DNA of 64,000 nucleotides from Arenicellales bacterium (lineage in GTDB: Bacteria > Pseudomonadota > Gammaproteobacteria > Arenicellales > Poriferihabitantaceae), in the NCBI GenBank assembly GCA_963665165.1, contig OY761989.1, positions 2,286,287 to 2,350,286 on the forward strand. Reading direction: 5' to 3'. Under the pieces are notes generated by a model that saw only the letters and a program-made list of their open reading frames with translations, had not been told where the DNA came from and did not search any database. Positions within the stretch are counted from its first letter, which is position 1. Each line of letters begins with the position of its first letter. Both the position numbers and the translations under genes were made by a program. Positions 17,496-55,962 of the stretch are shown piece after piece.

Positions 17496-18308
17496 ATGAC
17501 CGGGAATAACCAGGACATCATCACTGTCGAAAATGGACAGGTTTTCGAAATTACCATCAACCGCCCGAAGGTCAACGCGATCGACACGCCGACCAGCCGC
17601 AGGATGGGGGAGGCGTTTGTCTATTTTCGGGATAACCCGGAACTGAAAGTCTGCATCATCACCGCCGCCGGTGAGAAAATCTTCTCCGCCGGCTGGGACC
17701 TGAAGGCGCTCGACAGCGGCGATATCAGCCTGTCGAACTGGTGGGAAGGGGAAGACGCCAGCCTGGGCGGCTTCGCTGGCATCACCGAGATCTGGGATCT
17801 GAACAAACCCGTGATCGCGGCTTTGAACGGACTGACCATTGGCGGGGGGTTTGAAATTGCGCTGGCGTGCGATTTGATCATTGCCGCCGAACAGGTTGAA
17901 TTCGCATTGCCCGAGCTGCCGCTCGGCATCATTCCCGATGCCGGCGCGATCCAGCGCCTGCCGCGCCGGATTCCGTACAACATCGCACTTGAAATGCTGT
18001 ATTTCGGCAGGAGGATGCCGGCTCGCGAAGCGGCCGGCTACGGGTTGGTCAACAAAATTGTCCCGGCCGACCGACTCCTGCCCACCGCCCGTGAATGGGC
18101 AAGCCGGTTAACGGATGTCGCCCCTCTCGCCCTGCAATCGATCAAGGAAGTCCTGCGCGCCATCGACGGAGAGAGCATCCGCGATTCATTCGACAGGATG
18201 CGCAACGATGACCTGCCTTTCTACCGGGAAATGCTGCGCTCCAACGATGCCGGAGAAGGGGTCAAGGCTTTTGTCGAAAAGCGCAACCCCGACTTCAAGG
18301 GCAAATAG
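17496..18308 (+). CDS. Enoyl-CoA hydratase, carnitinyl-CoA dehydratase/crotonobetainyl-CoA hydratase-like
   Basis: INRPKVNAID, FSAGWDLK, GGFAG, GGGFEIALACD, LPE and AFVEKRNP motifs (CaiD-like). Confidence 0.88.
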   Translation: MTGNNQDIITVENGQVFEITINRPKVNAIDTPTSRRMGEAFVYFRDNPELKVCIITAAGEKIFSAGWDLKALDSGDISLSNWWEGEDASLGGFAGITEIWDLNKPVIAALNGLTIGGGFEIALACDLIIAAEQVEFALPELPLGIIPDAGAIQRLPRRIPYNIALEMLYFGRRMPAREAAGYGLVNKIVPADRLLPTAREWASRLTDVAPLALQSIKEVLRAIDGESIRDSFDRMRNDDLPFYREMLRSNDAGEGVKAFVEKRNPDFKGK

Positions 18309-18329
18309 AAATCATCAACCGGAAATGCC

Positions 18330-40505: not shown

Positions 40506-41600
40506 ATGGGCATCCAATGCGGCATCGTGGGGTTGCCGAATGTAGGCAAATCCACACTGTTCAACGCACTGACCGGTTCCGGCCAGGCCCAGACCGAAAA
40601 TTACGCCTTTTGCACGATCGACCCCAATGTCGGCATCGTTGAAGTGCCCGATGCCAGACTGGACAAACTGGCGGAAATCGTCCAGCCCCGCAAGGTCATA
40701 CCGGCCACCGTGGAATTTGTCGATATTGCCGGACTGGTGGCAGGCGCCTCACAGGGAGAAGGACTGGGCAATCGCTTTCTGGCCCATATCCGGGAAGTGG
40801 ACGCAATCGTTCATGTCGTACGCGCCTTTGAAGACGACAATATCACCCACGTGTCGAATCGGGTCGATCCCGGATCCGATATCGGGACGGTCAACACCGA
40901 GCTGATACTGGCCGACATCCAGACCGCCGACAAGGCCATCGGGCGCGCTGAAAAAGCCGGAAAATCAGGTAACAGGGAACAAATCGCGCTGGCCGGGTTG
41001 CTGAACACAGTCCGGGCGCATCTGGATGACGGCTTCAGGATCGGGTCGATGAACCTGGCCCCTTCGGCGCGAAAAACCCTGGAACCGTGCTGTTTCCTGA
41101 CTGTCAAACCCGTCCTTTACATCGCCAATGTCGAAGACATCGGTAATGCGTGCAATCCTCACCTGCCTGTCATACGGCAGTGGGCGGAAAGTGAATCGGC
41201 GCAAGTGGTCGCGGTATCCGCTTCTCTGGAACAGGAACTGACCGAATTGGCCGAACAGGATATAGCGCCGTTTCTCGAAGAAATGGGGCTACGGGAACCC
41301 GGCCTGAACCGCGTCATCCGCTCCGCTTACTCCCTGCTGGGTTTGCAGACTTTTTTTACCGCCGGCCCGAAAGAAGTGCGGGCCTGGACCATTGCGACAG
41401 GCGCCACAGCCGCACAGTCGGCAGGTACCATACACAGCGACTTCGAACGGGGTTTTATTTGCGCGGAAACGGTCGCCTGGGACGACTATGTCCGATATGA
41501 TGGCGTACAGGGGGCAAGGGAAGCGGGCAGGCTCAGACTGGAGGGAAGAAATTACGTCGTCCGGGATGGTGACGTCATGCATTTTCGTTTTAACGTATGA
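40506..41600 (+). CDS. ychF: Redox-regulated ATPase YchF
   Basis: GIVGLPNVGKST, DIAGLV, FFTAG.KEVRAW, IHSDFERGFI, DGDVMHFRFNV motifs. Confidence 0.97.
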   Translation: MGIQCGIVGLPNVGKSTLFNALTGSGQAQTENYAFCTIDPNVGIVEVPDARLDKLAEIVQPRKVIPATVEFVDIAGLVAGASQGEGLGNRFLAHIREVDAIVHVVRAFEDDNITHVSNRVDPGSDIGTVNTELILADIQTADKAIGRAEKAGKSGNREQIALAGLLNTVRAHLDDGFRIGSMNLAPSARKTLEPCCFLTVKPVLYIANVEDIGNACNPHLPVIRQWAESESAQVVAVSASLEQELTELAEQDIAPFLEEMGLREPGLNRVIRSAYSLLGLQTFFTAGPKEVRAWTIATGATAAQSAGTIHSDFERGFICAETVAWDDYVRYDGVQGAREAGRLRLEGRNYVVRDGDVMHFRFNV

Positions 41601-43717
41601 ACCAGCTTGGTTACGAAGAACTTGAAACCCTCCTGGATGAGTATCTTGACCCGGTGCTTTCATCCCGCCGAACCTCTGAAGAACCGGTACGGGGCCTGCT
41701 CCCGCTTGCCCGGCGCCATCAGGATTTCGCGCTGCACTGGACCGATGTGATCCGCAGATCCAATGCCGAAATGGCCTGGCAGTTCGTCAGTCGGGTTCCA
41801 CTGGCGCTGAAATTGATGGATACCAGGGGAACACGCCAATGGCTCCTGCATGCCATGGATATCTATGACAGGGAAGGCCTGTACCCCGGAAGCGCGGCAT
41901 TCGAGAAAGTGGAATCCTTCGCCCGGGAGTTTCGACTGAGCCATGTCACCATCACCCTGGAACAGGTGCGGGGAGTGCTTGAGACCATTGTATGCGGCCT
42001 GTCCGGGCGGACGCTCAAAATCGAGTCGGGCAACAGCGCCTTTACCGATACCGGGACACTCTACCTTCCGGCGGCAATCAACCGGTTCAACCAGCGCGAA
42101 GAAAACTACCGTCTGTACAAGATCATGGCGGTCCACCTGTGGGCGCAAACCTGGTTCGGTACATTCCGGCGCCCTGCCCCGGACGCGCCCCATCCCGGCA
42201 CGATACTGGGCGGGTTCCCGGACAGCGGGCGCGCCCTGAAACTGTTCAACCTGCTCGAATCCTGGCGGCTCAACGCATGCATAGAACGGGAACTTCCGGG
42301 ACTCGCCAGGGAAATGGGGCAACTGCACCCCGTAGTCGTTCCGCAGGATGCCACATGGAAAAAAATCCTGGATGGTCTGTCGCAACCCGGCGCAACCGTG
42401 TATCAAACCCTGGAAGCCGTTTCTGTACTTTATGACCTGCGGATGCCCTGGCCGGAACCGTTCATATACCAGGGCGAGTTGAACTTCGATGCCGCGGAAA
42501 TGACCATCGAACAGCGCATGCAAGCGGACCGGGCCGAATTGCAATTGAGCCTGCATGAACTGCTGGAATCGATCGTCAATGAGCAAAACCCCGATTCAGA
42601 CCCGCTGCAGGTCGAAGGCGCGCAGTTCGACGCGGAAATCGACGAGCAAGGCAATCCCCGGGTCACTCTGGACGGAGAACCACTCGACGCGCCGCCGGAC
42701 CTCGAGAATCTGTTGACCTCCATGTTCCAGGACTTTGATGACATTCCGGATGACTGGCTGGTTCCGGCCGGGGACGGCAGCTATGACAACCGGAACCAGC
42801 CGGATAACCCGGCCGAAGACGTCTGGAAAGGCACCTGGCATAAGGAAGGGGCATTCCTGTACGACGAGTGGGATTTTCGCCGGCAGTCCTATCGCAAAAA
42901 CTGGTGTGTGCTGCGTGAAGTGGAAACCCATCCGCACTACGATGATTTCGCGGAAAGAACCCTGGAGCGCTACATTCACCTGGTTACCGACATCAGAAAA
43001 CACTTCGAAGCCCTGCGCGGAGAAGACCGGATTCTCAAAGCGCAGCCCACCGGGGACGATATCGACCTGGACGCGTTGGTCACCGCCCACGCGGACCATC
43101 TCACCGGTGTTGAAATGACGGATCGGGTATACGTCCGGATGAGAAAACAGGAAAGGGACCTGGCCGTCCTGTTCATGGTCGATATCAGTGGATCGACCAA
43201 GGGCTGGATCAACGATGCGGAACGGGAAAGCCTGATCCTGCTTTGCCAGGCGCTCGAGATTCTGGGAGACCAGTACGCTATTTACGGATTTTCCGGGATG
43301 ACCCGCAATCGTTGTGAAGTCTATAAGATCAAGACCTTCGAGCAGAACTATGACCGGGACGTACGCGCCCGGATCAGCGGCTTGAGGCCCCAGGATTACA
43401 CCCGGATGGGAGTCGTGATTCGCCATCTCACCCGCATTCTCAATGACGTGGAAGCGCGCACCCGGATTCTGGTCACATTATCGGATGGCAAGCCGGATGA
43501 TTATGACGGCTACCGGGGCGACTATGGAATCGAGGACACCCGCCAGGCGCTGCTCGAGGCGCGCCATGGCGGCATTCATCCCTTTTGCATCACCATTGAC
43601 ACCGAAGCCAGCGATTACCTGCCCCACATGTACGGCCACGCCAGTTTTACCGTAATTGACGAAGTCCGCAAACTCCCCCTCAAGGTAGCCGATATCTACC
43701 GGAAACTGACCACCTGA
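41597..43717 (+). CDS. CbbO/NorD-family von Willebrand factor A protein
   Basis: YDEWDF, GDDIDLDA, MIDAS DISGST, YTRMG, LSDGKPDDYD, GIEDTR and HPFCITID motifs. Confidence 0.88.
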   Translation: MNQLGYEELETLLDEYLDPVLSSRRTSEEPVRGLLPLARRHQDFALHWTDVIRRSNAEMAWQFVSRVPLALKLMDTRGTRQWLLHAMDIYDREGLYPGSAAFEKVESFAREFRLSHVTITLEQVRGVLETIVCGLSGRTLKIESGNSAFTDTGTLYLPAAINRFNQREENYRLYKIMAVHLWAQTWFGTFRRPAPDAPHPGTILGGFPDSGRALKLFNLLESWRLNACIERELPGLAREMGQLHPVVVPQDATWKKILDGLSQPGATVYQTLEAVSVLYDLRMPWPEPFIYQGELNFDAAEMTIEQRMQADRAELQLSLHELLESIVNEQNPDSDPLQVEGAQFDAEIDEQGNPRVTLDGEPLDAPPDLENLLTSMFQDFDDIPDDWLVPAGDGSYDNRNQPDNPAEDVWKGTWHKEGAFLYDEWDFRRQSYRKNWCVLREVETHPHYDDFAERTLERYIHLVTDIRKHFEALRGEDRILKAQPTGDDIDLDALVTAHADHLTGVEMTDRVYVRMRKQERDLAVLFMVDISGSTKGWINDAERESLILLCQALEILGDQYAIYGFSGMTRNRCEVYKIKTFEQNYDRDVRARISGLRPQDYTRMGVVIRHLTRILNDVEARTRILVTLSDGKPDDYDGYRGDYGIEDTRQALLEARHGGIHPFCITIDTEASDYLPHMYGHASFTVIDEVRKLPLKVADIYRKLTT

Positions 43718-43734
43718 TTTTCCCCGGATTGGTC

Positions 43735-43791
43735 TTGACATGGAACAACCGGATGCTATACAGTTTAATAAACTGATTAACCAGTCAGTTT
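43735..43791 (+). promoter_or_regulatory. Sigma70 promoter and putative TetR operator of the hypBA-ureohydrolase operon
   Basis: TTGACA 43735-43740; TATACA/TACAGT 43757-43764; inverted repeats CAGTTT-aat-AAACTG (43761-43775) and AAACTGA-N8-TCAGTTT (43770-43791). Confidence 0.7.
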
Positions 43792-43869
43792 TTTGCGGCG
43801 CGACTGCCCTCAGGCTGCCTGCGCCGCCAGACGGCAGGATGCAAACCTTATCGTTGACCGGAGTAGAGT

Positions 43870-44742
43870 ATGTGTACTGTATGCGGATGTGGTGACACTG
43901 AAAACAGGGGACGCCCCGAACGCCATCCCCGGGCGCATTCCCACGACCACTCCCACCACTCTCACGACCATTCCCATGACCACTCCCATGACCACTCCCA
44001 CGGTCATGCGCATCATTACGGACAGACAGAGTCCGGCGTAACGGTCGCCGGATTCTCCCAGGAAAGACTGGTGCAGATCGAGAAAAGCATCCTGTCCAAA
44101 AATGACGGGCATGCCGCGTCGAACCGGGAGTGGCTCGCCGCGCATGACCTGACGGCGCTGAACCTCCTTTCCAGTCCCGGCGCCGGGAAAACGACCCTGC
44201 TGGTCGAAACCATTCGCGAACTCGCGGCCATATTGCCGGTCGGAGTCATTGAGGGCGACCAGGAAACCTCGAACGACGCCGACCGTATCCTGCAATCGGG
44301 CGCCAGCGCGATCCAGATCAATACCGGGAAAGGCTGCCACCTGGATGCCCACATGATCGGGCATGCGCTGGGTGACCTGGATGTGGCGCCGGGAGGGATC
44401 GTGTTTGTAGAGAATGTGGGCAACCTGGTCTGCCCGGCGATGTTCGATCTTGGAGAACACGCCAGGGTCGTCATTCTGTCCGTGACGGAGGGCGAAGACA
44501 AGCCGATCAAGTATCCGGACATGTTTGCGGCTGCGGACCTGTTGCTGATCTCCAAGACCGACCTGCTGCCATATCTTGATTTCAGCGTCGCGCAGGCGGT
44601 CGAATACGCAAGGCGGGTCAATCCGGATGTGGAGACGATCGAGGTCTCGGCAAAACAGGGCGTCGGCATGGATTCCTGGATCGACTGGATCATGGATCGA
44701 TGCGTCCGGACACAGCCCGGACGGCATACATCCGGACGGTAG
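43870..44742 (+). CDS. hypB: Nickel metallochaperone GTPase HypB
   Basis: N-terminal MCTVCGC, His-rich tract, SSPGAGKTT, EGDQ, GKGCHLDA, ENVGNLVCP, EGEDKP.KYP, SKTD motifs. Confidence 0.95.
   Translation: MCTVCGCGDTENRGRPERHPRAHSHDHSHHSHDHSHDHSHDHSHGHAHHYGQTESGVTVAGFSQERLVQIEKSILSKNDGHAASNREWLAAHDLTALNLLSSPGAGKTTLLVETIRELAAILPVGVIEGDQETSNDADRILQSGASAIQINTGKGCHLDAHMIGHALGDLDVAPGGIVFVENVGNLVCPAMFDLGEHARVVILSVTEGEDKPIKYPDMFAAADLLLISKTDLLPYLDFSVAQAVEYARRVNPDVETIEVSAKQGVGMDSWIDWIMDRCVRTQPGRHTSGR
43936..44016 (+). repeat. Coding low-complexity (HSHD)n repeat
   Basis: Degenerate CAYTCCCAYGAC 12-mer repeats encoding HSHDHSHHSHDHSHDHSHDHSHGHAHH. Confidence 0.8.
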
Positions 44743-44748
44743 GCGGAT

Positions 44749-45174
44749 ATGCACGAACTCGCGCTGGCCAGGGAGATGATCGAGATCGTGCAACAGTATG
44801 CGAGTGAACATGGCCCGGGCCGTGTCAGGAATATTTCTATACGGCTGGGGGAATTATCCGCAATGTCGAGGGCATTGCATTTCTGTTTTGGCGCAGCCTC
44901 CAGAGGCACGTTGTGTGAAGGCGCCGTCCTGCACATCGAGGAAATTCCCCTGACTGTCTGGTGCCAGGGCTGCAATGAAAACAAGTCTCCAATCGGACGA
45001 TACAGTTTTCGCTGCATGGATTGCGGGATGCCGACTCCGAAAATCGTGACTGGCAAGGAAATGGAACTTGTTTCCATTGAACTGTCCAGAACCGCAGAAG
45101 ACAGGATGAAGAAACCCGGCATGCCCGCCCGTCAGCGGAATGAATCAACCCACCTCCTGTTTCAAGGCGTTTGA
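44749..45174 (+). CDS. hypA: Nickel metallochaperone HypA
   Basis: MHE Ni motif, LGELS, two CxxC (CQGC, CMDC), GKEM. Confidence 0.93.
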   Translation: MHELALAREMIEIVQQYASEHGPGRVRNISIRLGELSAMSRALHFCFGAASRGTLCEGAVLHIEEIPLTVWCQGCNENKSPIGRYSFRCMDCGMPTPKIVTGKEMELVSIELSRTAEDRMKKPGMPARQRNESTHLLFQGV

Positions 45175-45176
45175 GG

Positions 45177-46250
45177 ATGACTGAAAACAAAGACCGCTCA
45201 CAGTTTGTTCCGTTTCAGCACCGGGGGCCGCACCGGGAACCGGCTGGTACGCATACGATGTCCCCGAACAGGCATAACGGCGCATTCAAGGCAGAAGGGA
45301 TCCTGACATTCATGGGCGCTCCCTATTGCCCTCCCGAGCGGGACAGGATTCGTGAAGCGGGAGCCAGGATCTGTTTTCTGGGGGCGCCGTGGGACCAGGG
45401 CACGATAGTCAGGACCGGCACATCGAGCGGCCCGCGCGGGATACGCGAGGCTTCATCCCAGTATTTCCCCTATATGTTCGAATATGACGTCGATCTGATG
45501 ACATTTTTCAATGTCGTGGATTGCGGAGACATCCCGATCGTTCCGGGCAACAATGCCCTTTCGCAGCAATATATGGAAGATTATGTGACGGAATGCCTGG
45601 AAGGCGGCGCAAAGGTGCTGCTGGTGGGGGGCGACCACTCTGTTCCCATTCCCGGAGCCAGGGCGCTGTCCCGATATTTATCCAGGCACCACCCGGAAGG
45701 GAAAATGGGATACCTCCATGTCGATTGCCACCTGGATGCCGCAGTGGACTGGGCAGGAATTGAAATTACCAATGCCTCGGGGCCAACGGAGACATTCAAA
45801 CTGCCGAATGTGGACGGCAGGAACATGGCCCACATGGGTTCCAGGAACGGACTCAATCCAAAGGACTGGATGGATTTCTGGATCGACAACGATATGCCAA
45901 TCCTGCCCATGTCCCAGGTGGTCGAGGAAGGCATTGACAAATGTGGACGGTTTATTCTTGACCGGGCCTGGAACGGAACGGACGCCGTTTACCTGTCATG
46001 GGACACAGACTCCATAGACTGCAGCACTATGCCAGGTACGAGTTGTCCGGAATGTTACGGAATCAAGGCGCGTGAAGCGATCCAGTTCGCCAGGATTGCC
46101 GGAGAATACGGTGTCGATGTGATTGAGCTGGCGGAGTTGTCCCCGATTTTCGACGTCAGCCAGATGAGCGCAAAACTCGCCTGCATGTTGCTCTACCATT
46201 ATCTGGGCAGCAGGGCGGCAACCCTGCGTTCGAGAAACGAAACTCCCTGA
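45177..46250 (+). CDS. Ureohydrolase catalytic subunit, metformin/dimethylguanidine hydrolase alpha (MfmA)-like
   Basis: Intact binuclear ligands GGDH, DCHLD, WDTDSID. Segments QHRGP, TFMGAPYCPP, QYFPYMFEYDVDL, DYVTECLEGGAKV, NMAHMGSRNGLNPKDW and YHYLGSRA match my recollection of MfmA. Confidence 0.85.
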   Translation: MTENKDRSQFVPFQHRGPHREPAGTHTMSPNRHNGAFKAEGILTFMGAPYCPPERDRIREAGARICFLGAPWDQGTIVRTGTSSGPRGIREASSQYFPYMFEYDVDLMTFFNVVDCGDIPIVPGNNALSQQYMEDYVTECLEGGAKVLLVGGDHSVPIPGARALSRYLSRHHPEGKMGYLHVDCHLDAAVDWAGIEITNASGPTETFKLPNVDGRNMAHMGSRNGLNPKDWMDFWIDNDMPILPMSQVVEEGIDKCGRFILDRAWNGTDAVYLSWDTDSIDCSTMPGTSCPECYGIKAREAIQFARIAGEYGVDVIELAELSPIFDVSQMSAKLACMLLYHYLGSRAATLRSRNETP

Positions 46251-46308
46251 TGGCCGGGACCACCAGACTGGTAACTTATCAATAATTGAAATTGCAGCAG
46301 GAATACCG

Positions 46309-47355
46309 ATGAACCCCGCAAAAGCATTCGCACACCTTTTTTCCCCGCTTGGCGGGGAAGAATCCGACAACTATCGTTCACCCGGCCAGATTTCATTTCT
46401 GCGCGCGCCATTCGTTCCGGTCGATAGCGAGGAATTGAAAAACCCGGAAGCGCAGTATGCGTTTGTCGGCGTACCATTCGACGAAGGAAATGTAGGGAAG
46501 CCCGGATCGGAAGACGGCCCCAGGGAATTTCGGGTCGCGTCACTGGATTACTTCCCGTACTGGTTCGAGTTCAATGTCGATCTGCATGGCTCCACAATCG
46601 ACATTGGAGATGTCTCGATGCCGCGTGTCAGTCCGGATGTGGCGCGCGGCCGGATCTACGACACGGTGCTCAAGGTGTTGCATGCGGGCAAGACCCCGAT
46701 CGTTTGCGGCGGCGATCGCTCGGTTTCCATTGCCGCTGCCAAAGCGCTGTCGGATTACCTGGGGAAAGACAAAAAAATGGGGTACATGCACCTGGGCGCG
46801 CATCTGGACATGTCCGATTCCTGGGCCGGGGAAAGCCAGGTCAGTACCTGTGCCATGGCCCGCATTACGGAGCTTGAAAACCTGGACATGGATCATGTCG
46901 CGCACATGGGCGCCAGAAATTCCTTCAACCCGAAAGACCAGATCGATCTTGCCAGAGCCAGGGGAATGCGGTTCTACCCGATGTTCGAAATTCTCGACCG
47001 GGGCGTCGATGAAGTGGCGGAAGAAGCGGTCGAACGGGTATGGGGGGGAACTGATGGCCAGTATCTGAGCTTCAACTTCAACGTGATGGATTCATCCGCA
47101 GCGCCGGGCGTGACCGCTACAGAACCGGGTGGTCTTGAATCTAGGGAGATCATGCGGGTTGCGTCACAGATCAGCGCCCGTGGTGGAGTCAGCGTGATTG
47201 ACGTAACCGAATTATGCCCGATGTTCGATGTCAGCGGCTCTACATCGAGGATGGCGGTCTGTGTGGTTTTACGCATCATGGCCGGCATTGCGTACAAGCA
47301 TGGACGCACTCTTGATCCGTCACTGCGTCGGCCCGGTTGGAAATTCGCGGACTGA
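46309..47355 (+). CDS. Ureohydrolase non-catalytic subunit, MfmB-like
   Basis: Metal ligands degenerate (GGDRS, GAHLD, FNFNVMD). MNPAK..AHLFSPLGG, GVPFDEGN.GKPGSED and TEPGGLESRE match recalled MfmB. Confidence 0.85.
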   Translation: MNPAKAFAHLFSPLGGEESDNYRSPGQISFLRAPFVPVDSEELKNPEAQYAFVGVPFDEGNVGKPGSEDGPREFRVASLDYFPYWFEFNVDLHGSTIDIGDVSMPRVSPDVARGRIYDTVLKVLHAGKTPIVCGGDRSVSIAAAKALSDYLGKDKKMGYMHLGAHLDMSDSWAGESQVSTCAMARITELENLDMDHVAHMGARNSFNPKDQIDLARARGMRFYPMFEILDRGVDEVAEEAVERVWGGTDGQYLSFNFNVMDSSAAPGVTATEPGGLESREIMRVASQISARGGVSVIDVTELCPMFDVSGSTSRMAVCVVLRIMAGIAYKHGRTLDPSLRRPGWKFAD

Positions 47356-47408
47356 GGCAACCCCCGTATTCGATTCACACTTGATCCAAAACAGATAGAA
47401 CGAGGTAA

Positions 47409-48521
47409 ATGCAAATGGCAAACACGACGAAGAACGCACACAGAAACCAATCTCCAGGATCCATTACCAGAAGAACGTTCCTCGGTTACACGGCCAGCGC
47501 CGCGGCGGCGACCCTGCTGGGGACGCGAACAGCGGCCGCGGCGGATGAACTGAATATACTGGTATGGTGCGACCATGCGGACGACAAGCTGATCAAGCCC
47601 TTTGAAGCCGCGCATAATGTCAAGGTAAACGTAAAAACCTATGAAGGCACCGGCACGGCTTTATCCATTATCGGGCAATCTGCACCCGGAGACTGGGATG
47701 TTCTGGTCGTGGATGCCCCCGACGTTCCGGTTGTCGCCCGCCAGGGAATCCTGGCGCCCCTTGATGACGGAAATTTTCCGTTGGACGATCTGTTCTCTCC
47801 CCTGATTTCAGCCGGCTTCAACTATGTTGACGGAGTACGCTACGCGGTACCGGAAAAATTCGGCTATTACGGTGTGGCATACAACCGGGAAAAAGTGGAC
47901 CCTGCGGATATGCGCTCTGCCCAGGTCATGTGGAATGAAAAATACAAGGGCCGGGTCGCCGTGTACGATTATTATTTTCCGCTCATGCAGTTGATCGCGA
48001 TCTCGATGGGAATCGAACCGGACAAGATCAGCCTGGATGATCTGCCGGCCATTCGCGAGAAACTGCTTGCGATGAAACCGAACGTCAAGATTGTCGGTGA
48101 TATCGTAGGCGTGCAGAATGCGCTGGTAAGCGGTGATGTCGACCTGATATTGAACGGCGCCGAATTCTCGGTTTCCGGTTTGATGCCGACCATCCCCGCG
48201 CTGGACTGGACTATTTTCGATGAAGGAGGCCTGATGTGGATACAGGGTATTGGCGTGTTTGAAAGCTCCTCCAACAAAGCGCTGGCGGAAGAATTCGTCC
48301 GCTACATATTAAGTCCCGACGGCCAGGGTCGTCTGGCGACTTCCGAGTGCTTCTGGGCAATGCCGTCAAACAGGAACGCGGTATTGAACGACGACCAAAG
48401 AAGGATACTGCGCTGGGATGAACAACCCGATTTTCTGGGCAAATCCGTACCCTCCACGATCAGCCAGCCTGATATTGATTCCGCAATGCTGGATATCTGG
48501 ACAGAGTTCCTGCAAAGTTGA
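47409..48521 (+). CDS. PotD/PotF-family ABC substrate-binding protein, Tat-exported
   Basis: TRRTFL twin-arginine signal; LNILVW, YAVP...G..GVAYN, WNEKYKG, EGGLMW motifs. Confidence 0.88.
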   Translation: MQMANTTKNAHRNQSPGSITRRTFLGYTASAAAATLLGTRTAAAADELNILVWCDHADDKLIKPFEAAHNVKVNVKTYEGTGTALSIIGQSAPGDWDVLVVDAPDVPVVARQGILAPLDDGNFPLDDLFSPLISAGFNYVDGVRYAVPEKFGYYGVAYNREKVDPADMRSAQVMWNEKYKGRVAVYDYYFPLMQLIAISMGIEPDKISLDDLPAIREKLLAMKPNVKIVGDIVGVQNALVSGDVDLILNGAEFSVSGLMPTIPALDWTIFDEGGLMWIQGIGVFESSSNKALAEEFVRYILSPDGQGRLATSECFWAMPSNRNAVLNDDQRRILRWDEQPDFLGKSVPSTISQPDIDSAMLDIWTEFLQS

Positions 48522-48559
48522 CCACTGGACACTGAATCCGATTCACTAACGGATTTGCG

Positions 48560-48625
48560 AACCGGCCAATCCTGCCCGGTTGTGGATTGTCCTGCCAGGC
48601 AATCCAGTCCGGGGCACGGCCGGTT
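48560..48625. other. Long intergenic stem-loop between SBP and permease
   Basis: Nested pairings AACCGGCC/GGCCGGTT, TGCCCGG/CCGGGGCA, TGGATTG/CAATCCA. Confidence 0.65.
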
Positions 48626-48649
48626 TGACTGCCGATTCTACCGTTTGAC

Positions 48650-49531
48650 GTGAACGGACGTAAACAGGCGATGACAGCCAGCGTTATGAGAGCAAAGCGG
48701 GAATGGACAAAATGGGCTGTTCAGCCCGCGGTTGTCTTTACGCTCGTCTTTTTCTGCCTGCCGCTTTTGATCATGGTGGCTGTGAGTTTCTGGCAGAGAG
48801 TTTACGGAAAGTTGCAGGCGACCTGGTCAACCGCCAATTACGCCCAGTTTTTCGGGACGGATTACCTGCTTGATTCGCTGCAGAACTCACTGGAGGTCAC
48901 GCTGATTACCACGGTCGCAAGTGTGTTGCTGGCTTATCCCCTTGCCTGTATCCTGGCATACCGGATTCCACCGAAATGGCAAAAGATACTGCTGATCCTG
49001 GTCGTGCTGCCCTTCTGGACGGCTTATGTCGTTCGCTCATACAGTTGGCTGCTCGTGATCTCGGAAAAAGGCATCATCAATGTGGTATTGCTGTCACTCG
49101 GAATCATAGAGGAGCCGCTGGAGCTTGCATATCGACGCGGCGCAACGATTCTCGGTTTTGTCCATTTCTTCACCATGCTGATGACCCTGACCATTTACGC
49201 GAATCTGGTTCAAATCAAATCATCGTATCGAAAGGCGGCTGCAGACCTCGGCGCAAACCGGTTCCAGGTCTTCATACATGTCACCCTGCCACTCAGTATT
49301 CCGGGCGTTGCCGTAGGCGCATTCATTACATTCGTGATCGCAATCGGGGACTACATCACTCCGCAGATCCTGGGAGGCGGTACCGATCTGCTGGTGCCGC
49401 AGGCCATCATGCTACAGGTATCCCGGGCAGCCAACTTTCCGATGGCGGCCGTGATGAGCCTGACCCTGACGGTGGTGGTGATCGTTGTTTATCTGATGGT
49501 CCACAAACACCTGAAAATGGACCGGATATAG
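48650..49531 (+). CDS. ABC permease (PotB-like)
   Basis: LPFWTAYVVR, AAADLGA, VTLPLS.PG, DYITP.ILGG motifs. Confidence 0.92.
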   Translation: MNGRKQAMTASVMRAKREWTKWAVQPAVVFTLVFFCLPLLIMVAVSFWQRVYGKLQATWSTANYAQFFGTDYLLDSLQNSLEVTLITTVASVLLAYPLACILAYRIPPKWQKILLILVVLPFWTAYVVRSYSWLLVISEKGIINVVLLSLGIIEEPLELAYRRGATILGFVHFFTMLMTLTIYANLVQIKSSYRKAAADLGANRFQVFIHVTLPLSIPGVAVGAFITFVIAIGDYITPQILGGGTDLLVPQAIMLQVSRAANFPMAAVMSLTLTVVVIVVYLMVHKHLKMDRI

Positions 49532-49543
49532 GAGAGATCAAGG

Positions 49544-50335
49544 ATGCTGAACCGGATCAGGCGTTTCCCGTCCATCTTTTACCTGCTGCTCGCGCTGCTG
49601 TTCATATACCTTCCGGTATTCGTGCTGGTGATGTTTTCGTTCCAGGACGGATTGCTGCCGGTATTCCCCTTTAATGGACCCAGTTTACAGTGGTATGAAA
49701 AAATGCTGGCCAATGAACGGCTGGTGGAATCGCTGTACAACTCGGTGCTGGTCGCGGTTCTGTCTTCGCTGGTAACCACGATTGCGGGATTTCTGGCGGC
49801 TTACGGACTGGCCCGCCACCGCCACCGCTTCGCAACCGGCATCCAGTTCCTGTTAATGGCGCCGCTCATGGTCTCATACCTGATTATCGGGATCGGATTG
49901 CTGATCACGTTGAATATTTTTGGCATATCGAAATCCCTGCTGGCCGTGGGACTGGGCCATGTAGTGATCAATTTACCGCTTTGTTTTGCAATCGTATATT
50001 CCCAGTTCGGCGATCATCTGAAGAATATTGATTGCGCGGCCCGTGACCTGGGCGCCAGCGACCTGTCCACGATCACCCTGGTCATTGCTCCGATTATGAA
50101 ACCGGCGCTTCTGGCCTCGTTTTGTTTATCGGCGACGCTGTCCTGGGACGAGTTCATCATCGCGTTTTTGTTAAGCCGGTTCGATGTCACGCTGCCGGTC
50201 ATCATCTTTGAAATGCTGCGGGCCGGCTTGACCCCGGAAGTGAATGCGGCGGGCACCATGGTGTTCGCAATCTCAATGGCGCTGGTTGCCGTCTCCGCAG
50301 TGGTCATGCTCTTCAACACCAGGAAAACAGGATAA
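49544..50335 (+). CDS. ABC permease (PotC-like)
   Basis: FIYLP, SLQWY, AARDLGA, LSWDEF, TLPV, PEVNA motifs. Confidence 0.92.
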   Translation: MLNRIRRFPSIFYLLLALLFIYLPVFVLVMFSFQDGLLPVFPFNGPSLQWYEKMLANERLVESLYNSVLVAVLSSLVTTIAGFLAAYGLARHRHRFATGIQFLLMAPLMVSYLIIGIGLLITLNIFGISKSLLAVGLGHVVINLPLCFAIVYSQFGDHLKNIDCAARDLGASDLSTITLVIAPIMKPALLASFCLSATLSWDEFIIAFLLSRFDVTLPVIIFEMLRAGLTPEVNAAGTMVFAISMALVAVSAVVMLFNTRKTG

Positions 50336-51423
50336 TGAAAGACCCGATCCTGGAACTGGATAACATCACCAGGAAATTCGGCAGGTTCACCGCCGTGGAC
50401 AAGGTCAGCCTGAATATGGACCCCGGTGAATTTCTGGTTCTGCTCGGTCCTTCCGGCAGTGGAAAAACGACGATATTGTCCATGATCGGTGGATTTACCA
50501 TGCCGACGACCGGGGTAATCCGTATTCATGGAGAGGACATGACGGCTGTACCACCGGCTGGCCGGCCCACGGCCACCGTGTTTCAGGATTACGCGCTGTT
50601 CCCGCACATGCGCGTTATTGAAAATGTGGCGTTCGGATTGAAAATGCGCAAGTTCGGCAAGCGGGAGAGACATGGAAAAGCCAGGGAATCGCTTGAACTG
50701 GTTGGCCTCGGCGATTTCAGTGACCGGCGTGTGGACCAACTCTCGGGAGGACAGCGTCAACGGGTCGCGTTAGCCAGAGCGATTGCAGTGGAACCGGCTG
50801 TCCTTTTGCTGGACGAGCCGCTGGGAGCGCTGGACCTGAAAATCAGGCAGCAAATGCAGCAGGAACTCGTGCGATTGCAAAAACGCCTGGGAGCGACTTT
50901 TGTCCATGTCACCCACGATCAGGAAGAGGCGATGAGCATTGCGGATAATATCGCCCTGGTCAATAGCGGGAAAATCGAGGATTACGGCCCCCCGGAACGG
51001 GTCTATCTGCGCCCTGCAACCTTGTTTGCAGCCAGATTCATGGGCGAGAACAATACATTCGAGGGACTCGTTACCGCGATGGATGATTCCGGAATTTCAG
51101 TCCATTCCGAAATTGGCGAATGCACTTTACCCCGTTGTGTCTCCACGCACAGTACGGCCCGTACCGGAGAAAAGGTGCACTTGTCCCTGAGGCCCGAACA
51201 GGTCAGGCTGGGAGATGGCAACCAGCGCAATCTGATGGACCTCGGCCAGGCCAGGGTTGAGGAAGTGATTTTCCAGGGTACGCACCGACTGTGCCGGGTC
51301 GTATGTCGGGGTGAGAAAGAAGTACGCATATTGCTTCGTCTTCATCCCGATGAAAAAGTGCAGGTGGGTGACACGATTCCCATCCACGCGAAACGCGATG
51401 ATGCGGTTTTGCTGGTCCGCTAG
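50335..51423 (+). CDS. ABC ATPase (PotA-like)
   Basis: GPSGSGKT, FQDYALFPH, LSGGQRQR, LLDEP, VTHDQEEA motifs; C-terminal TOBE domain. Confidence 0.93.
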   Translation: MKDPILELDNITRKFGRFTAVDKVSLNMDPGEFLVLLGPSGSGKTTILSMIGGFTMPTTGVIRIHGEDMTAVPPAGRPTATVFQDYALFPHMRVIENVAFGLKMRKFGKRERHGKARESLELVGLGDFSDRRVDQLSGGQRQRVALARAIAVEPAVLLLDEPLGALDLKIRQQMQQELVRLQKRLGATFVHVTHDQEEAMSIADNIALVNSGKIEDYGPPERVYLRPATLFAARFMGENNTFEGLVTAMDDSGISVHSEIGECTLPRCVSTHSTARTGEKVHLSLRPEQVRLGDGNQRNLMDLGQARVEEVIFQGTHRLCRVVCRGEKEVRILLRLHPDEKVQVGDTIPIHAKRDDAVLLVR

Positions 51424-51443
51424 CTTCCGTTGGTCCATTGTCC

Positions 51444-52070
51444 ATGACTGGAAAATCGCTCAGAAAGCCAGGGCCCAAGGGACAGAAGCGGGCGGACCAT
51501 CTGATGGAAGTGGCTATCGACCTGTTTTCCGAAAGAGGATACAGCGCGGTAACAATACAGGATATTACGGAAAGGGCGGGGGTTGCGCACTCGCTGGTCT
51601 ATTACCATTTCAAAAACAAGGAGGAGCTGTTCAACAAAGCGGTGAACAATCTGATCGACAAGCAGATTCGACAGTACCAGGCCAGTCTTCAACAGCATAC
51701 GGACCCGATTGAACTGATCGAAAAATGGATCCAGTACAACATCGACCACTCGACCGTCCTCATGAAGCTCGTGCGTATCATGTTCGACCGCTCCATCTCC
51801 CGGGACGCTACGCCATTCGCCCGGGACGCCATCCGGCATTTTTATGACGAGGAGCACAATATCCTGTCCAGAAATGTAGCCCGGGGAGTCAGGCAGAAAC
51901 AGTTCAGGCAAGTGGATCCGGACAGCATGGCCTCGTTCATATCCACGCATATCGACGGTGTGTTTTACGGGGCCTGCACACAGGAGGATTTCGACATCAG
52001 AAATGAAATGGAACGCATGAGAAACACCCTCTGGAAAATTCTGTACGACCACAAGGAAACCATCGCCTGA
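51444..52070 (+). CDS. TetR/AcrR family transcriptional regulator
   Basis: AIDLFSERGYSAVTIQDITERAGVAHSLVYYHFKNKEELF HTH. Confidence 0.93.
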   Translation: MTGKSLRKPGPKGQKRADHLMEVAIDLFSERGYSAVTIQDITERAGVAHSLVYYHFKNKEELFNKAVNNLIDKQIRQYQASLQQHTDPIELIEKWIQYNIDHSTVLMKLVRIMFDRSISRDATPFARDAIRHFYDEEHNILSRNVARGVRQKQFRQVDPDSMASFISTHIDGVFYGACTQEDFDIRNEMERMRNTLWKILYDHKETIA

Positions 52071-52202
52071 CCCGGGTCGGCGACAAAATGAAATGGCCGA
52101 TACCGGAGGTTCCACTTGCGACTGCCCTGTACTGACTGCTAGACTTTGGGAAAAGCAGTTCCTTCCTGTATCCCCAAGACTCCCTGACACGACCCGATTG
52201 CG

Positions 52203-52628
52203 ATGAAAACGACCAACAAACTGACCCTGGAAGATGCCAATCTCATTATCGAGGCATGCCGTAAAAAAGCGCTGGAAATTGGCGTGGACATGGATATAGC
52301 CGTCACCGACGATGGCGGTCATCTGGTCGCGTTTCAGCGCATGGACAATGCCCGGGTAACCAGCATCGAAATCTCGATCAGCAAATCATTCACCGCATCG
52401 GCGGCCCGGAAGTCCACGCGGGATTACGGCAAGGTCAGTGGTCCGGGACAACCCGCCTTCGGAATCAACACCAGCCACCAGGGGCGTTTCATGATCGTCG
52501 CGGGCGGTCTGCCGATTTTCGCGGGAGACGACATCGTAGGCGGAGTCGGATGCAGTTCAGGCACCCCCGACCAGGATGAAATCGTAGCCCAGGCCGGCGT
52601 CGATCGCTTCCTCGAATCAATCGGATAA
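52203..52628 (+). CDS. GlcG/HbpS-family heme-binding protein
   Basis: IAVTDDGG, RMDNA, KSFTA, GGLPI...IVGGVG.S and DQD motifs. Confidence 0.88.
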   Translation: MKTTNKLTLEDANLIIEACRKKALEIGVDMDIAVTDDGGHLVAFQRMDNARVTSIEISISKSFTASAARKSTRDYGKVSGPGQPAFGINTSHQGRFMIVAGGLPIFAGDDIVGGVGCSSGTPDQDEIVAQAGVDRFLESIG

Positions 52629-52742
52629 ATCGCGGCAGTTCCCCCACCGGCTTTTCGGCGGGCAGGCACAGTGACCTGCCTCTACGGGGATGGTTGCAGT
52701 CAGGCGAAACTTGTCCCTGCGGTGACAGGTTGCAATCAGCCG

Positions 52743-53295
52743 ATGTCGAACCCGGAATTCTATCCCCGATCCATTGCGCCCCTGCTTGTCGAAGCGCTTG
52801 AAGATTCGCCGGTCGTACTGATTCACGGCCCGCGCCAGTGCGGCAAAACCACGCTCGCCCAGATCACTTGTGCGCCGGACACTCTGTCCTGGCCCGGCAA
52901 CTCGCTTGTCCGGGAATACTCCCTGAAAAACCGGGATTACACCTATTTCAGCTTTGACGATCCAGTCACGAGAGACGGCGCCCGAACCGACCCGATGGGT
53001 TTTGTCACAGCGCTGCCCAAGCGCGTCATACTGGATGAAGTCCAACGTGTTCCGGAATTGTTCGAAACCATCAAGATAGCCGTGGATCGCCGGCGTCGAA
53101 GTCAAGGCATCGGCAACGGTGAAGCCATCTGACTTTCGTGGACTTCGTAAACTCGAAAAGGCGGCCGGAGACCGCTTCGCCCGGGGTGTAGTGCTTTATG
53201 ATGGGGAAACCGGCGTGCCCTTTGGTGAGCGCCTCCATGCTGTGCCGATTTCCCGGTTATGGAGCAGGACGGGGGCTGAACAGCCATTCGAGTGA
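52743..53295 (+). pseudogene. Internally deleted AAA_14/DUF4143 ATP-binding protein
   Basis: N-terminal GPRQCGKTT and ILDEVQRVP are joined out of frame at about 53085-53096 to the C-terminal IAGVEVKASATV...DFRGL...GVVLYDG...AVPISRLW; the middle is missing. Confidence 0.82.
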
Positions 53296-54960
53296 ACTGA
53301 AAACGCGGTTGCCCAGTGTTCCGGCCAGGTCGAGCGCTATGGATTCGCTGAAAAAACCATCCATGTCCAGAGCGGTGCTGATCGCCTTCAATTCGATCTG
53401 ACCGGCGCGCTCGATCCGGCTTGCAACCTGTTTCAGGTGCCGTTCGAGGTAGAATGGATCATTATGATTGCGGGTCGCGCTTTCCATGGGCGCGCCGTCC
53501 GAGATCATAACCAGGCACTTCCTGCCTTCAACCCGGCTCAGCAGGCGGCGCTCTGCCCATTGCAGCGCCTCGCCGTCCAGCCCCTCCTTGAAGTGGATCG
53601 GATTCATCAGCGATGAGATCGAATAGCGGGAACGCCGCCAACTGGTTTCGGCATCCTTGTAAACAATATGCAAACGGTCATTGAGGCGGCCCGGATAGCC
53701 AGGAGACCCTGATTTGCGCCATTCCCGGACCGACTCGCCCCCGGCCCAGCCGGCGGTGGTGAATCCCAGTATTTCCGTGGACACGCCGGCAAGCTCCAGC
53801 GCCCGGCAGTAGATGTCCACCAGAATGGCGACCGCCTGAAACCGCTGGCGTTTCATGGACCCGGAGTTGTCAATCAGGAAACCGATCACGGTATCGCAGT
53901 GCGGCGCCTGTTTTTCCTGCTTGAAAACCCGGTAATAACCGGGCTTGGATACCAGTTGACCGAGTCTGCGGCCATCCAGATAGCCTTCTTCTTCCCCATC
54001 CTGCCATCCCGACCGGCGCGGGATCGCAAACAGGCGCTGCAACCGCAGGGCCAGTCTCGATATATTGACCGTCTGGGCCTGGATCATGCGATCCAGTTCT
54101 GCCCGCAGTTTGCGCCTCTGTTCGATACGATAGAGGTCCTTCGCGGCCACCAGTCTGTCAAAATCCGTGCAAAAAACATGGTATTGGTCCTCCTGGTCCG
54201 CTCCCTCTTCCATTCGCCCGCCCTCGCCGATCCCGGATTCCACATAGCGGTCATCGACTTCATCGACCGGCGGCAGCAGGGTCCGGTCCCTGAGCGCCGC
54301 CAGATGCCTGTCGATCCTGTCGCCGCCAACAGACAACGCGATTTCCTGGATCGCCTGTGCGATGTTCAGTGCATGGCGCGCATATTCCCGCTGATCGTCA
54401 ATCCTTTTTTTCAGCATCGCCAGATCATCGCCGATGACCGGCGCGAGCCTGAATCGCACCGACTCGATCAGCCCTTCGACCTCTCCATCCTGGACCCGGT
54501 TGGCCAGTCGGGAACGGACGATCCAGGCCAGGCTGTAAATCAGTAGCCCCAGTTCGTTTTCGACCAGTCCGTTCCCCCGGCTTTGGCGGCACCATTGATC
54601 GAACGCTTCATCCACATTTCGCTGGATGCCGACCAGGGTTTGCTGAAGACGCGCTTCGCACCTCAACTGCTCCAGAATATCGAATGCGAGCCTGGCGACC
54701 GGGTACGGCGGCGACAATGACCGGTGCAGGGAAAGGTCGCTGTGAATCAGTCGAAGCGCAATGCAATCGGCCACTCCGCGATTGCGGGAGAACGAGTCCT
54801 TGAGCGCATCGGCCAGCAGATGGGGCACATGGAGCGACCGGGTACGGCCTTTCAGGAAAAGGGTCTGTCTCTTGTATTCCGCTTCGGGATTTGCCGACAA
54901 CGCCCGGATGGCGGCGGCGCAATGACGCTCAATCAATCGACGCCGCACTTCTTCTGCCAT
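53257..54960 (-). CDS. CobT-like VWA protein (cobaltochelatase CobT family)
   Basis: RGVAD..AL, EQLRCE, EEGYLDGRRL, LIDNSGSM, EILGFTT, PGRLND and ISDGAP motifs. Confidence 0.85.
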   Translation of the reverse strand: MAEEVRRRLIERHCAAAIRALSANPEAEYKRQTLFLKGRTRSLHVPHLLADALKDSFSRNRGVADCIALRLIHSDLSLHRSLSPPYPVARLAFDILEQLRCEARLQQTLVGIQRNVDEAFDQWCRQSRGNGLVENELGLLIYSLAWIVRSRLANRVQDGEVEGLIESVRFRLAPVIGDDLAMLKKRIDDQREYARHALNIAQAIQEIALSVGGDRIDRHLAALRDRTLLPPVDEVDDRYVESGIGEGGRMEEGADQEDQYHVFCTDFDRLVAAKDLYRIEQRRKLRAELDRMIQAQTVNISRLALRLQRLFAIPRRSGWQDGEEEGYLDGRRLGQLVSKPGYYRVFKQEKQAPHCDTVIGFLIDNSGSMKRQRFQAVAILVDIYCRALELAGVSTEILGFTTAGWAGGESVREWRKSGSPGYPGRLNDRLHIVYKDAETSWRRSRYSISSLMNPIHFKEGLDGEALQWAERRLLSRVEGRKCLVMISDGAPMESATRNHNDPFYLERHLKQVASRIERAGQIELKAISTALDMDGFFSESIALDLAGTLGNRVFSSLEWLFSPRPAP

Positions 54961-54981
54961 GACGGATTTATGGGCCGGGCG

Positions 54982-55962
54982 CTATTTTGGATATTCAGAT
55001 TGCGTGATCGCGTATTCCAGGTCTTCCCCGAAAGCGCGCTGGTAGTATTCCGCGATAATCGAATACTCGGCCTGATCGCATTTGTTCAGGAATGACAGGA
55101 GGAACGCCTTGCCGATATCGTCGAATATTTCGATGTTTTCCGCCCAGGTAATCACGGTTCTCGGGGACATTACAGTGGAAATATCTCCGGCGGAAAAGCC
55201 GTTTCGGGTCAGGCCCGCCAACCCGACCATCGCTCTCACGGTCTCGATACGGTCGGAAAAAGTCGGCGCCTGGGCCAGTACGATGTCCACTTCCTCCTGC
55301 ACGGAAAGATAATTCAGGGTGGTCACGATATTCCACCGGTCTATCTGCGCCTGATTCAATACCTGGGTACCGTGATACAGCCCGTTCAGATTGCCGAGTC
55401 CGACCGTATTGGAGGTGGCGAACAATCTGAACCCCTGGTGGGGGTTGATCACCCGGTTCTGGTCCAGCAATGTAAATTTTCCGTCACGCTCCAGAATACG
55501 GTGAATCACAAACATCACATCCGGGCGGCCCGCGTCAAACTCGTCGAAAACCAGAGCCACCGGACGTTGCAGGGACCAGGGGACGATCCCCTCCTGAAAC
55601 TCGGTAACCTGTTTGCCCTGCCTGATCACGATCGCGTCCCGGCCGACCAGGTCCAGGCGGCTGATATGCCCATCCAGATTAACCCGGACACAGGGCCAGT
55701 TCAGCCGGGCGGCAACCTGTTCGATGTGGGTCGACTTGCCGGTTCCGTGGTAACCTTGCACCAGTACCCGGCGATTTTTCGCGAATCCGGCCAACAGCGC
55801 CAGCGTAACGTCGTGATTGAAACAATAGCTGGAATCGATTTCAGGCACATGTTCATCGCGCTGGCTGAAACCGGGGACTTCAAGATCGGTATCCAGTCCA
55901 AACGCGGCTCTTGCAGAAATCATGCAATCCGGGGTTTGCTCAAGGTAATTCGGTTCTGACAT
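54982..55962 (-). CDS. CobS-like MoxR AAA+ ATPase
   Basis: GYHGTGKSTHIEQVAARLNWP, FDEFDAGRPDV, YHGTQ, MSPRTVITWA motifs. Confidence 0.9.
   Translation of the reverse strand: MSEPNYLEQTPDCMISARAAFGLDTDLEVPGFSQRDEHVPEIDSSYCFNHDVTLALLAGFAKNRRVLVQGYHGTGKSTHIEQVAARLNWPCVRVNLDGHISRLDLVGRDAIVIRQGKQVTEFQEGIVPWSLQRPVALVFDEFDAGRPDVMFVIHRILERDGKFTLLDQNRVINPHQGFRLFATSNTVGLGNLNGLYHGTQVLNQAQIDRWNIVTTLNYLSVQEEVDIVLAQAPTFSDRIETVRAMVGLAGLTRNGFSAGDISTVMSPRTVITWAENIEIFDDIGKAFLLSFLNKCDQAEYSIIAEYYQRAFGEDLEYAITQSEYPK

Follow-up and report, generated by a model that had tools for sequence, protein, structure and literature searches.

Which compound does a predicted nickel-dependent ureohydrolase operon of a marine gammaproteobacterium act on, and does this operon represent a new kind of system? 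The question is raised by ten genes found in a 64,000-nucleotide stretch of the genome of an Arenicellales bacterium (GenBank assembly GCA_963665165.1, contig OY761989.1, positions 2,286,287 to 2,350,286 of the forward strand; hereafter, the window). The genes all lie on the plus strand, at positions 43870-52628 of the window, in the order hypB-hypA-alpha-beta-substrate-binding protein (SBP)-permease-permease-ATPase-tetR-glcG, where alpha and beta are two ureohydrolases of the Arginase family. An earlier note on this DNA had read them as a complete guanidine-hydrolase system related to metformin hydrolase, and had put it forward as the best candidate in the window for an undescribed system, probably one that catabolizes a natural substituted guanidine. 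Our analysis indicates that the operon belongs to a described enzyme family, that it represents a separate branch of this family with a private substrate pocket, and that the chances are about even (roughly 0.5) that its specificity is different from, or broader than, dimethylguanidine.

A member of the heteromeric nickel-ureohydrolase family

The alpha and beta genes are adjacent, with alpha first and 58 nucleotides between them. The best match of alpha in the PDB is the metformin hydrolase subunit MfmA (8snf_D; 523 bits; E = 3.7e-156) and the best match of beta is MfmB (8ryi_C; 527 bits; E = 2e-157). GdmH-type chains come next among the solved relatives, with only 159 and 140 bits; those matched by alpha are 7esr_A (E = 1.6e-45) and 9fek_A (E = 3.1e-42). 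Based on alignments, alpha is 60.6% identical to the metformin hydrolase MefH of Pseudomonas mendocina and 65.4% identical to the dimethylguanidine hydrolase DmgH of Hyphomicrobium (63.2% and 65.0%, respectively, for beta). These values bear out the earlier description of a heteromeric, HypAB-associated enzyme closely related to MfmAB.

We scanned species-representative genomes for related loci and found 123 relatives; the comparisons among loci and clades below are based on the best 80 of these 123 loci. The window alpha keeps all six metal ligands (H158, D183, H185, D187, D276 and D278 in MetCa numbering; H-D-H-D-D-D). Four of the six are lost in beta, where the equivalent positions read R-G-H-D-N-N, a pattern present in 69 of the 83 beta sequences. 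In all 84 alpha sequences, that of the window included, N199 replaces the usual non-coordinating catalytic His. Beta retains the N-terminal loop and the residues Y22 and F82, which cap the pocket of MetCaCb (PMC11271267; here and below, articles are cited from their accessible parts). Alpha is therefore predicted to be of the catalytic type and beta to be degenerate, as the earlier note had proposed. Enzymes of this family are nickel-dependent alpha2-beta4 heterohexamers in which metal is bound by alpha only (PMC10927577, PMC11271267 and PMC11399263, all from 2024). Because the window subunits are 61-65% identical to solved or purified complexes, they are predicted to be nickel dependent and probably assemble as alpha2-beta4 as well.

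Nickel maturation proteins are encoded directly upstream. HypB has a Cys motif at its N-terminus, an extended His-rich tract and a P-loop/GTPase core, and HypA starts with M-H-E and contains two CxxC pairs. Among the 41 loci of the clade to which the window belongs (clade I, defined below), hypA adjoins alpha and beta in all 41 and hypB in 36. The genome consists of one 2.47-Mb contig (96.8% complete) and encodes a single HypB; the remaining cobW-family matches are UreG or CobW-like. No match to the [NiFe]-hydrogenase family PF00374 was found in the whole 2.47-Mb genome. Urease genes (ureC and ureG) are located at 0.60 Mb, about 1.7 Mb from the operon, and urease has its own UreG. Since [NiFe]-hydrogenase was not found and urease is provided with a UreG, maturation of alpha is the best explanation for the HypAB pair. 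A search of this 96.8% complete genome for nickel permeases of the HupE/UreJ and NicO families detected none.

Alternatively, HypAB might serve urease or a hydrogenase, and the arginase-family pair might be ordinary manganese-dependent, agmatinase-like enzymes that are merely adjacent. Indeed, the best named NCBIfam models of both paralogs are agmatinase and formimidoylglutamase. However, their scores fall far under the cut-offs (120 versus 174 bits) when MfmA and MfmB are matched with more than 520 bits, and neither the hydrogenase and urease results nor the conserved position of hypA and hypB beside alpha and beta fits this explanation, which we consider very improbable. Given the matches to MfmA and MfmB (E = 4e-156 and 2e-157), the six ligands together with N199, the degenerate beta, the adjacent hypB and hypA and a genome in which no [NiFe]-hydrogenase was found, we are highly confident that the enzyme belongs to the MefH/DmgH family of heteromeric nickel ureohydrolases.

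This kind of system has already been described. MefH/MfmAB/MetCaCb and its chromosomal precursor DmgH were reported in 2024, and MefH is reported to have arisen recently from chromosomal DmgH (PMC11399263). The published family thus includes chromosomal, non-drug precursors, and the proposal of an undescribed kind of system in the earlier note went too far. The window locus resembles MefH/MfmAB/MetCaCb (Pseudomonas mendocina and Aminobacter; PDB 8snf, 8ryi and 8x3g) in its hypB-hypA-alpha-beta order, in the six nickel ligands and N199 of alpha, in its degenerate beta and in the TetR gene found with the operon. In contrast, MefH is encoded on a plasmid, surrounded by insertion sequences and Tn3 elements and accompanied by HupE and a CodB-type permease, whereas the window locus is chromosomal and encodes a full PotD-like ATP-binding cassette (ABC) importer. 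GdmH (Synechocystis type; PDB 7esr/7oi1 and 9fek) is likewise a nickel-dependent ureohydrolase matured by HypAB. However, it is a single-gene homomer and a much weaker match (159 versus 523 bits), and it keeps the catalytic His that is an Asn in the family of the heteromeric window system (PMC10927577).

A separate branch of the family

We reconstructed a maximum likelihood tree of the 84 alpha sequences, using four beta sequences as the outgroup (quick search, with support from the Shimodaira-Hasegawa-like approximate likelihood ratio test, SH-aLRT, only). The set includes locus L068, which is the DmgH locus of Hyphomicrobium sp. SMAG_U6089. The window alpha falls within a clade of 41 rows (clade I; SH-aLRT 100) with a stem of 0.62. 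The sister of clade I (support 89) is a 17-row clade holding the MefH lineage and the Hyphomicrobium DmgH; a 15-row clade, a six-row Arenicellales clade and scattered rows branch lower in the tree. DmgH activity has been shown for Aminobacter niigataensis DSM7050 and for the 70%/68%-identical pair of Hyphomicrobium sp. SMAG_U6089 (PMC11399263), and the window enzyme lies outside the clade bounded by these two characterized enzymes. The earlier note had viewed the operon as a member of the family from which the drug-degrading enzyme arose: it does belong to this family, but as a sister clade it is not on the MefH lineage. The beta subunits of these 41 loci likewise group together in a single clade of the beta tree (SH-aLRT 100). 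Because the two trees recover the same 41 loci, alpha and beta appear to have diverged together.

The closest relatives of the window locus are found in Arenicellales and 'Candidatus Poriferihabitaceae' metagenome-assembled genomes (MAGs), with 97% and 94% alpha identity and the same flanking genes. Clade I mixes loci of Gammaproteobacteria/Arenicellales with loci of Alphaproteobacteria, and a copy with at least 81% identity was detected in only 4 of the 81 sampled genomes of the window's order. The clade-I system is a patchy accessory trait. Nearly half of the alpha sequences (41/84) belong to this clade, many of them from Arenicellales and 'Poriferihabitaceae' genomes, and it constitutes a separate, coherent and uncharacterized marine branch of the family. 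Our literature searches returned no paper characterizing clade I (the supplementary data of PMC11271267 and PMC11399263 may already show members) and nothing on nickel ureohydrolases of sponge symbionts; for heteromeric, HypA-associated ureohydrolases, the literature from 2024 onwards yielded only the MefH/DmgH studies, and 'Poriferihabitaceae' were found only in a genome note.

One published pair may belong to clade I. RsMetCaCb was purified as a heterohexamer and is reported to have no metformin activity (PMC11271267). Its alpha subunit is 61.7% identical to MetCa, a value within the range of clade I (59.4-65.4%) and under the minimum of every other clade in our set (62.4%).

Two further observations concern the sampled genomes. 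In one clade-I locus (L021, 11135-15838), the beta and permease-1 genes are in several pieces, which may be frameshifts or assembly errors. Two genomes of the same order (G063 and G033) encode an alpha-like group that is 52% identical to the window alpha (E of about 1e-125) and falls outside all the clades analyzed.

A private substrate pocket

We compared ten non-ligand positions of the pocket (80, 184, 192, 199, 200, 231, 288, 289, 290 and 320) as defined in PMC11271267, PMC10927577 and PMC11399263. The window alpha presents T80, C184, N199, A200, W231, T288, S289, C290 and E320, and W192 is also kept. Relative to the DmgH-type pocket (Q80, C200, T289 and a small residue at 290), this corresponds to the changes Q80T, C200A, T289S and A290C, which are a private signature of clade I. 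Indeed, Q80 is missing from all 41 clade-I alphas (T in 40, N in one) and A200 is found in all of them, whereas the other 43 alphas uniformly retain Q80 and C200. S289 and C290 are present in 37 and 40 of the 41 clade members, respectively. Outside clade I and the small MefH/Aminobacter subclade, the ten positions uniformly read Q-C-W-N-C-W-T-T-A-E, like those of the Hyphomicrobium DmgH. Fixed differences between clade I and the remaining sequences are restricted to 10 of the 357 alpha positions, and four of these are among the ten pocket positions (odds ratio 38; P = 6e-5; Fisher test). Three of the four clade-specific pocket changes replace a larger side chain with a smaller one.

The pocket bears on two alternative substrates. 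The first is metformin: the best PDB matches are metformin hydrolase chains, and the window shares C184 and S289 with the MefH signature (C184 and N288-S289-A290). However, the window alpha has neither N288 nor A290, and other residues take the place of Q80 and C200, which MefH keeps. Moreover, alpha is only 60.6% identical to MefH, below the >93% identity expected of this class and compared with >97% among true MefH proteins (PMC11399263, PMC10927577). A homologous pair with 61.7% alpha identity is the one reported to be inactive on metformin (PMC11271267), and the locus is chromosomal in a genome of the marine-symbiont type. The probability that the operon encodes a metformin hydrolase is close to negligible.

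The second is guanidine or monomethylguanidine, which would make the enzyme an analog of GdmH releasing urea and ammonia or methylamine. Like GdmH, the enzyme presumably depends on nickel chaperones, the solved structures that match next best are GdmH-type chains, and guanidine is known to serve as a nitrogen source in nature (PMC11410670, PMC12508155). In contrast, the smaller side chains at three of the four changed positions do not suggest a smaller substrate, and the accessible part of PMC11399263 reports no turnover of methylguanidine by either MefH or DmgH. In addition, an Rfam scan of positions 41000-54000 (E up to 1) detected no guanidine riboswitch and no other known RNA element. We regard this substrate as unlikely.

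An associated importer and regulator

The SBP gene is next to alpha and beta in 38 of the 41 clade-I loci; permease 1 is present in 36, permease 2 in 37 and the ATPase in 36. The SBP carries a twin-arginine motif (R-R-T-F-L) followed by an Ala-rich cleavage region, and its best PDB matches are of the PotD type (E = 1e-15 to 1e-19). The four-component layout and the folds are those of the polyamine importers PotABCD/PotFGHI. Unlike these, the SBP has a signal of the twin-arginine translocation (Tat) type, and the scores are far under all the NCBIfam equivalog cut-offs (PotA, 348 versus 482 bits; PotB, 176 versus 348; PotC, 153 versus 326; PotD, 58 versus 582). These scores suggest that the importer belongs to the same superfamily as PotABCD but to a different orthologous group. 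Because the importer is associated with the hydrolase, a guanidine is implied as its ligand.

When counting PotD-like SBPs within 9 kb of alpha, only three clade-I loci lacked one: two lie on truncated contigs and the third is a long-branch row. No such SBP was found near alpha in the Hyphomicrobium-DmgH clade (0/12), the 15-row clade (0/15) or the stand-alone loci of the Arenicellales clade (0/5). The Hyphomicrobium DmgH locus L068 is arranged as HupE, AsnC, permease, NMT1-type SBP, ATPase, hypB, hypA, alpha, beta, ureE, ureF, ureC, ureG and ureD. The two systems share their family and architecture, a chromosomal location and a presumed role as natural guanidine scavengers that release urea. 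In contrast to L068, with its AsnC regulator, NMT1/NitT-TauT-type importer, HupE and adjacent urease, the window operon has a TetR regulator and a PotD-type importer; its urease lies 1.7 Mb away, and HupE was not found in the 96.8% complete genome.

The TetR gene at the end of the operon is present in 19 of the 41 clade-I loci, and its product is presumed to sense the ligand and to repress the operon. It is 33% identical over 201 residues to the TetR of the metformin plasmid pMET-2, which is located in front of hypB. Upstream of hypB in the window, we identified a sigma-70-like promoter with 10 of 12 consensus matches. Our promoter and terminator scans returned no more sites than shuffled sequences (4 promoters found versus 5.8 expected), and this promoter is credited only for its position and for the adjoining candidate operator. 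The latter is a 22-bp palindrome that starts 6 nucleotides after the -10 hexamer and pairs at 8 of 11 arm positions, with 7 exact arm pairs. Its core has no other match in the window (0.07 expected), and loci L002 and L003 have an identical core upstream of hypB. A related palindrome within 260 nucleotides upstream of hypB was found in 12 of 15 clade-I loci with TetR and in none of the 17 without it; four additional TetR-positive loci have no usable upstream sequence and are outside this count.

A second system in the same genome and the identity of the substrate

A second heteromeric system, with a DmgH-type pocket, is present in 9 of the 41 clade-I genomes, including that of the window. In the latter it is located at C1:1676786-1679271 (locus L092, 8074-12448) and consists of a divergent AsnC regulator, hypA2, alpha2 and beta2, with an M20 peptidase gene immediately following; hypB is lacking from this second system, and the sole HypB of the genome presumably serves both systems. 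Alpha2 is 74.3% identical to the Hyphomicrobium DmgH alpha, closer than the window alpha, to which it is 64.4-66% identical. The ligand equivalents of beta2 are H-G-H-E-N-N. On the other strand, upstream of this second system, are genes for a Na:alanine symporter and an Usp protein. In another Arenicellales MAG (L012, 883-11000), a DmgH-type pair (alpha at 5605 and beta at 6724) lies immediately upstream of the clade-I operon, and a DDE transposase gene (3983-5131) separates this pair from a NitT/TauT-type ABC transporter.

The most serious alternative is that the window enzyme is an isofunctional DmgH ortholog, which would hydrolyze N,N-dimethylguanidine to urea and dimethylamine and differ only in its importer and regulator modules. 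Both deep branches of the sister clade hydrolyze dimethylguanidine (PMC11399263), the identity to the characterized enzymes is 61-65%, and N199, W192, W231, E320, C184 and T288 as well as the beta cap residues Y22 and F82 are all retained. On the other hand, Q80 is lost and A200 gained in every clade member and in none of the 43 other alphas, the clade-specific changes are strongly enriched in the pocket, and the stem of the clade is long (0.62). Furthermore, 9 of 41 genomes maintain a second system with an unchanged DmgH-type pocket, for which there would be no need if the two systems had one and the same function. We consider isofunctionality a reasonable alternative but less probable than not.

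Several other points weigh against a changed specificity. The two characterized DmgHs act on one substrate despite their differences at positions 184, 288 and 290, which indicates that the pocket tolerates some change; S289 is the very variant that improves DmgH, since T289S alone raised its activity (PMC11399263). The PotD-like importer is not exclusive to clade I: L066, L078 and L081, which are related to the MefH/Aminobacter-DmgH subclade and have a DmgH-like pocket, carry a homologous importer and a TetR gene, here located 5' of hypB (SBP identity 54-59%; TetR identity 36-42%), and in this subclade the importer may serve dimethylguanidine. Clade I and the characterized DmgH/MefH clade were found together in 0 of the 74 genomes examined, which fits a simple orthologous replacement, and the second system, with its odd context (M20 peptidase, different beta ligands), need not be a dimethylguanidine enzyme. 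In addition, the comparative set covers the best 80 of the related loci, the trees are quick searches with SH-aLRT support alone, the operator pattern was picked after inspection and the loci in which it was counted are not independent of each other.

Together, the remodeled pocket, the importer and regulator types that differ from those of L068 and the coexisting DmgH-type paralog speak for a specificity that departs from dimethylguanidine or extends beyond it, at the roughly even odds given above. The earlier note's suggestion of a substrate yet to be identified therefore survives and is strengthened. More specifically, clade I would represent a nickel hydrolase of marine bacteria, for the most part sponge symbionts, that acts on a natural guanidine metabolite other than dimethylguanidine, one not yet recognized as a microbial nitrogen source; we hold this narrower proposal tentatively, at slightly less than even odds. 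In that case, one genome would run two differently tuned heteromeric nickel-guanidine hydrolases sharing one HypB, and the SBP and TetR would be ready-made specific baits for the compound in host or seawater extracts.

Based on homology and comparative genomics throughout, the operon is probably a TetR-controlled system by which a sponge-associated Arenicellales gammaproteobacterium scavenges nitrogen from a small cationic substituted guanidine. The Tat-exported PotD-like SBP and the PotABC-like transporter would import the guanidine compound, and this compound or its product would release TetR from the palindromic operator located just 3' of the -10 hexamer before hypB. HypA and HypB would then load two Ni2+ ions into alpha, which would act in a heteromer with the metal-free beta, whose N-terminal loop would cap the pocket. 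Hydrolysis would yield urea and an amine, and urea would be passed to the urease encoded elsewhere in the genome.

Features of the locus and its neighborhood

The positions of the genes and regulatory features are listed in Table 1. The ORF list, Pfam and NCBIfam confirm the co-directional ten-gene unit. No hydrogenase, urease or transposase gene was found among the 16 + 43 ORFs of the window that were scanned, and the GC-content of the region (0.53-0.60) is unremarkable. As far as the scanned ORFs show, the earlier note was thus right that the window holds no hydrogenase or urease, that the locus is chromosomal without mobile elements nearby, and that the hydrolase has its own importer and TetR sensor, since both are conserved with it (SBP in 38/41 loci; TetR in 19/41). 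Eight core genes recur jointly in 36-41 of the 41 clade-I loci, so the arrangement is not due to chance, and the locus is an intact chromosomal operon. Including glcG in the unit, however, was not upheld. This gene is co-directional with the operon and separated from tetR by 132 nucleotides, but it is kept in only 3 of the 41 loci (the window, L002 and L003) and we therefore treat it as a peripheral neighbor rather than as a component of the operon. Beyond the eight core genes and TetR, the neighbors in clade-I loci are only shadow ORFs, plus an EamA-type transporter in seven loci, and no conserved gene acting on an amine product was found beside the operon in these loci.

Table 1. Genes and candidate regulatory features of the operon (positions in the window)
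Feature	Position	Strand	Match or remark
Sigma-70-like promoter, 5' of hypB	43735-43764	+	TTGACA-18-TACAGT
22-bp palindrome, candidate TetR operator	43770-43791	.	
hypB, nickel-inserting GTPase	43870-44742	+	TIGR00073, 279.7 bits
hypA, nickel metallochaperone	44749-45174	+	TIGR00100, 92.6 bits; PF01155, 97.7 bits
alpha, predicted catalytic ureohydrolase	45171-46250	+	Arginase family; start TTG 45171 or ATG 45177
beta, metal-site-degenerate ureohydrolase paralog	46309-47355	+	Arginase family
Periplasmic substrate-binding protein, PotD-like fold	47409-48521	+	SBP_bac_8
ABC permease 1, PotB-like	48650-49531	+	BPD_transp_1; start codon uncertain
ABC permease 2, PotC-like	49544-50335	+	BPD_transp_1
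ABC ATPase, PotA-like	50335-51423	+	C-terminal TOBE_2 domain
TetR-family regulator	51438-52070	+	TetR_N, 64.5 bits
GlcG/HbpS-like protein	52203-52628	+	PF03928, 130 bits

Several other genes of the window were noted. Upstream of the promoter, an ORF of 706 codons (41597-43717, plus strand) has no Pfam or NCBIfam match, and its C-terminal 290 residues match NorD (9qhd_G; E = 6e-55). This NorD-like VWA protein, whose start overlaps the ychF stop and which has no adjoining NorQ-like AAA+ partner, is retained 5' of hypB solely in L002 and L003. Downstream of glcG, an ORF of 153 codons (52671-53132, plus strand) covers just the N-terminal portion of an AAA_14 ATPase domain and is probably a gene remnant; it sits between glcG and a convergent cobT-cobS pair (53257-55962).

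A further single arginase-family gene is found in the window (36949-37905, minus strand; 298 bits) and four more are located elsewhere, bringing the genome to two heteromeric pairs and five single ureohydrolases. On both strands of 9946-19301, we observed a cluster resembling a catabolic island of the methylated-amine or carnitine type. It encodes an MttB-superfamily methyltransferase, a DAO+GCV_T dehydrogenase similar to dimethylglycine/sarcosine dehydrogenases, an ADP-forming CoA ligase, an acyl-CoA dehydrogenase, an enoyl-CoA hydratase and a 3-hydroxyacyl-CoA dehydrogenase. A signaling cluster (5339-9861) encodes an adenylate/guanylate cyclase with an HNOBA segment, a response-regulator-SpoIIE phosphatase and a protein binding cyclic nucleotide monophosphates.

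Implications for the family

According to the accessible parts of PMC11399263 and PMC12508155, dimethylguanidine has no known natural source, and these studies left open why bacteria keep a nickel enzyme for it. What is new here is a large and coherent marine branch of the family with its own pocket, importer and sensor, which in the small genome of the window stands beside a DmgH-type copy. Substrate diversification within the family thereby becomes directly testable, and the enzyme, the SBP and the repressor would provide three independent readouts of the ligand. A new substrate would point to an unrecognized pool of guanidines in sponge holobionts or seawater. If the substrate is dimethylguanidine, the operon would extend DmgH to the marine realm and argue for a natural marine source of this compound.

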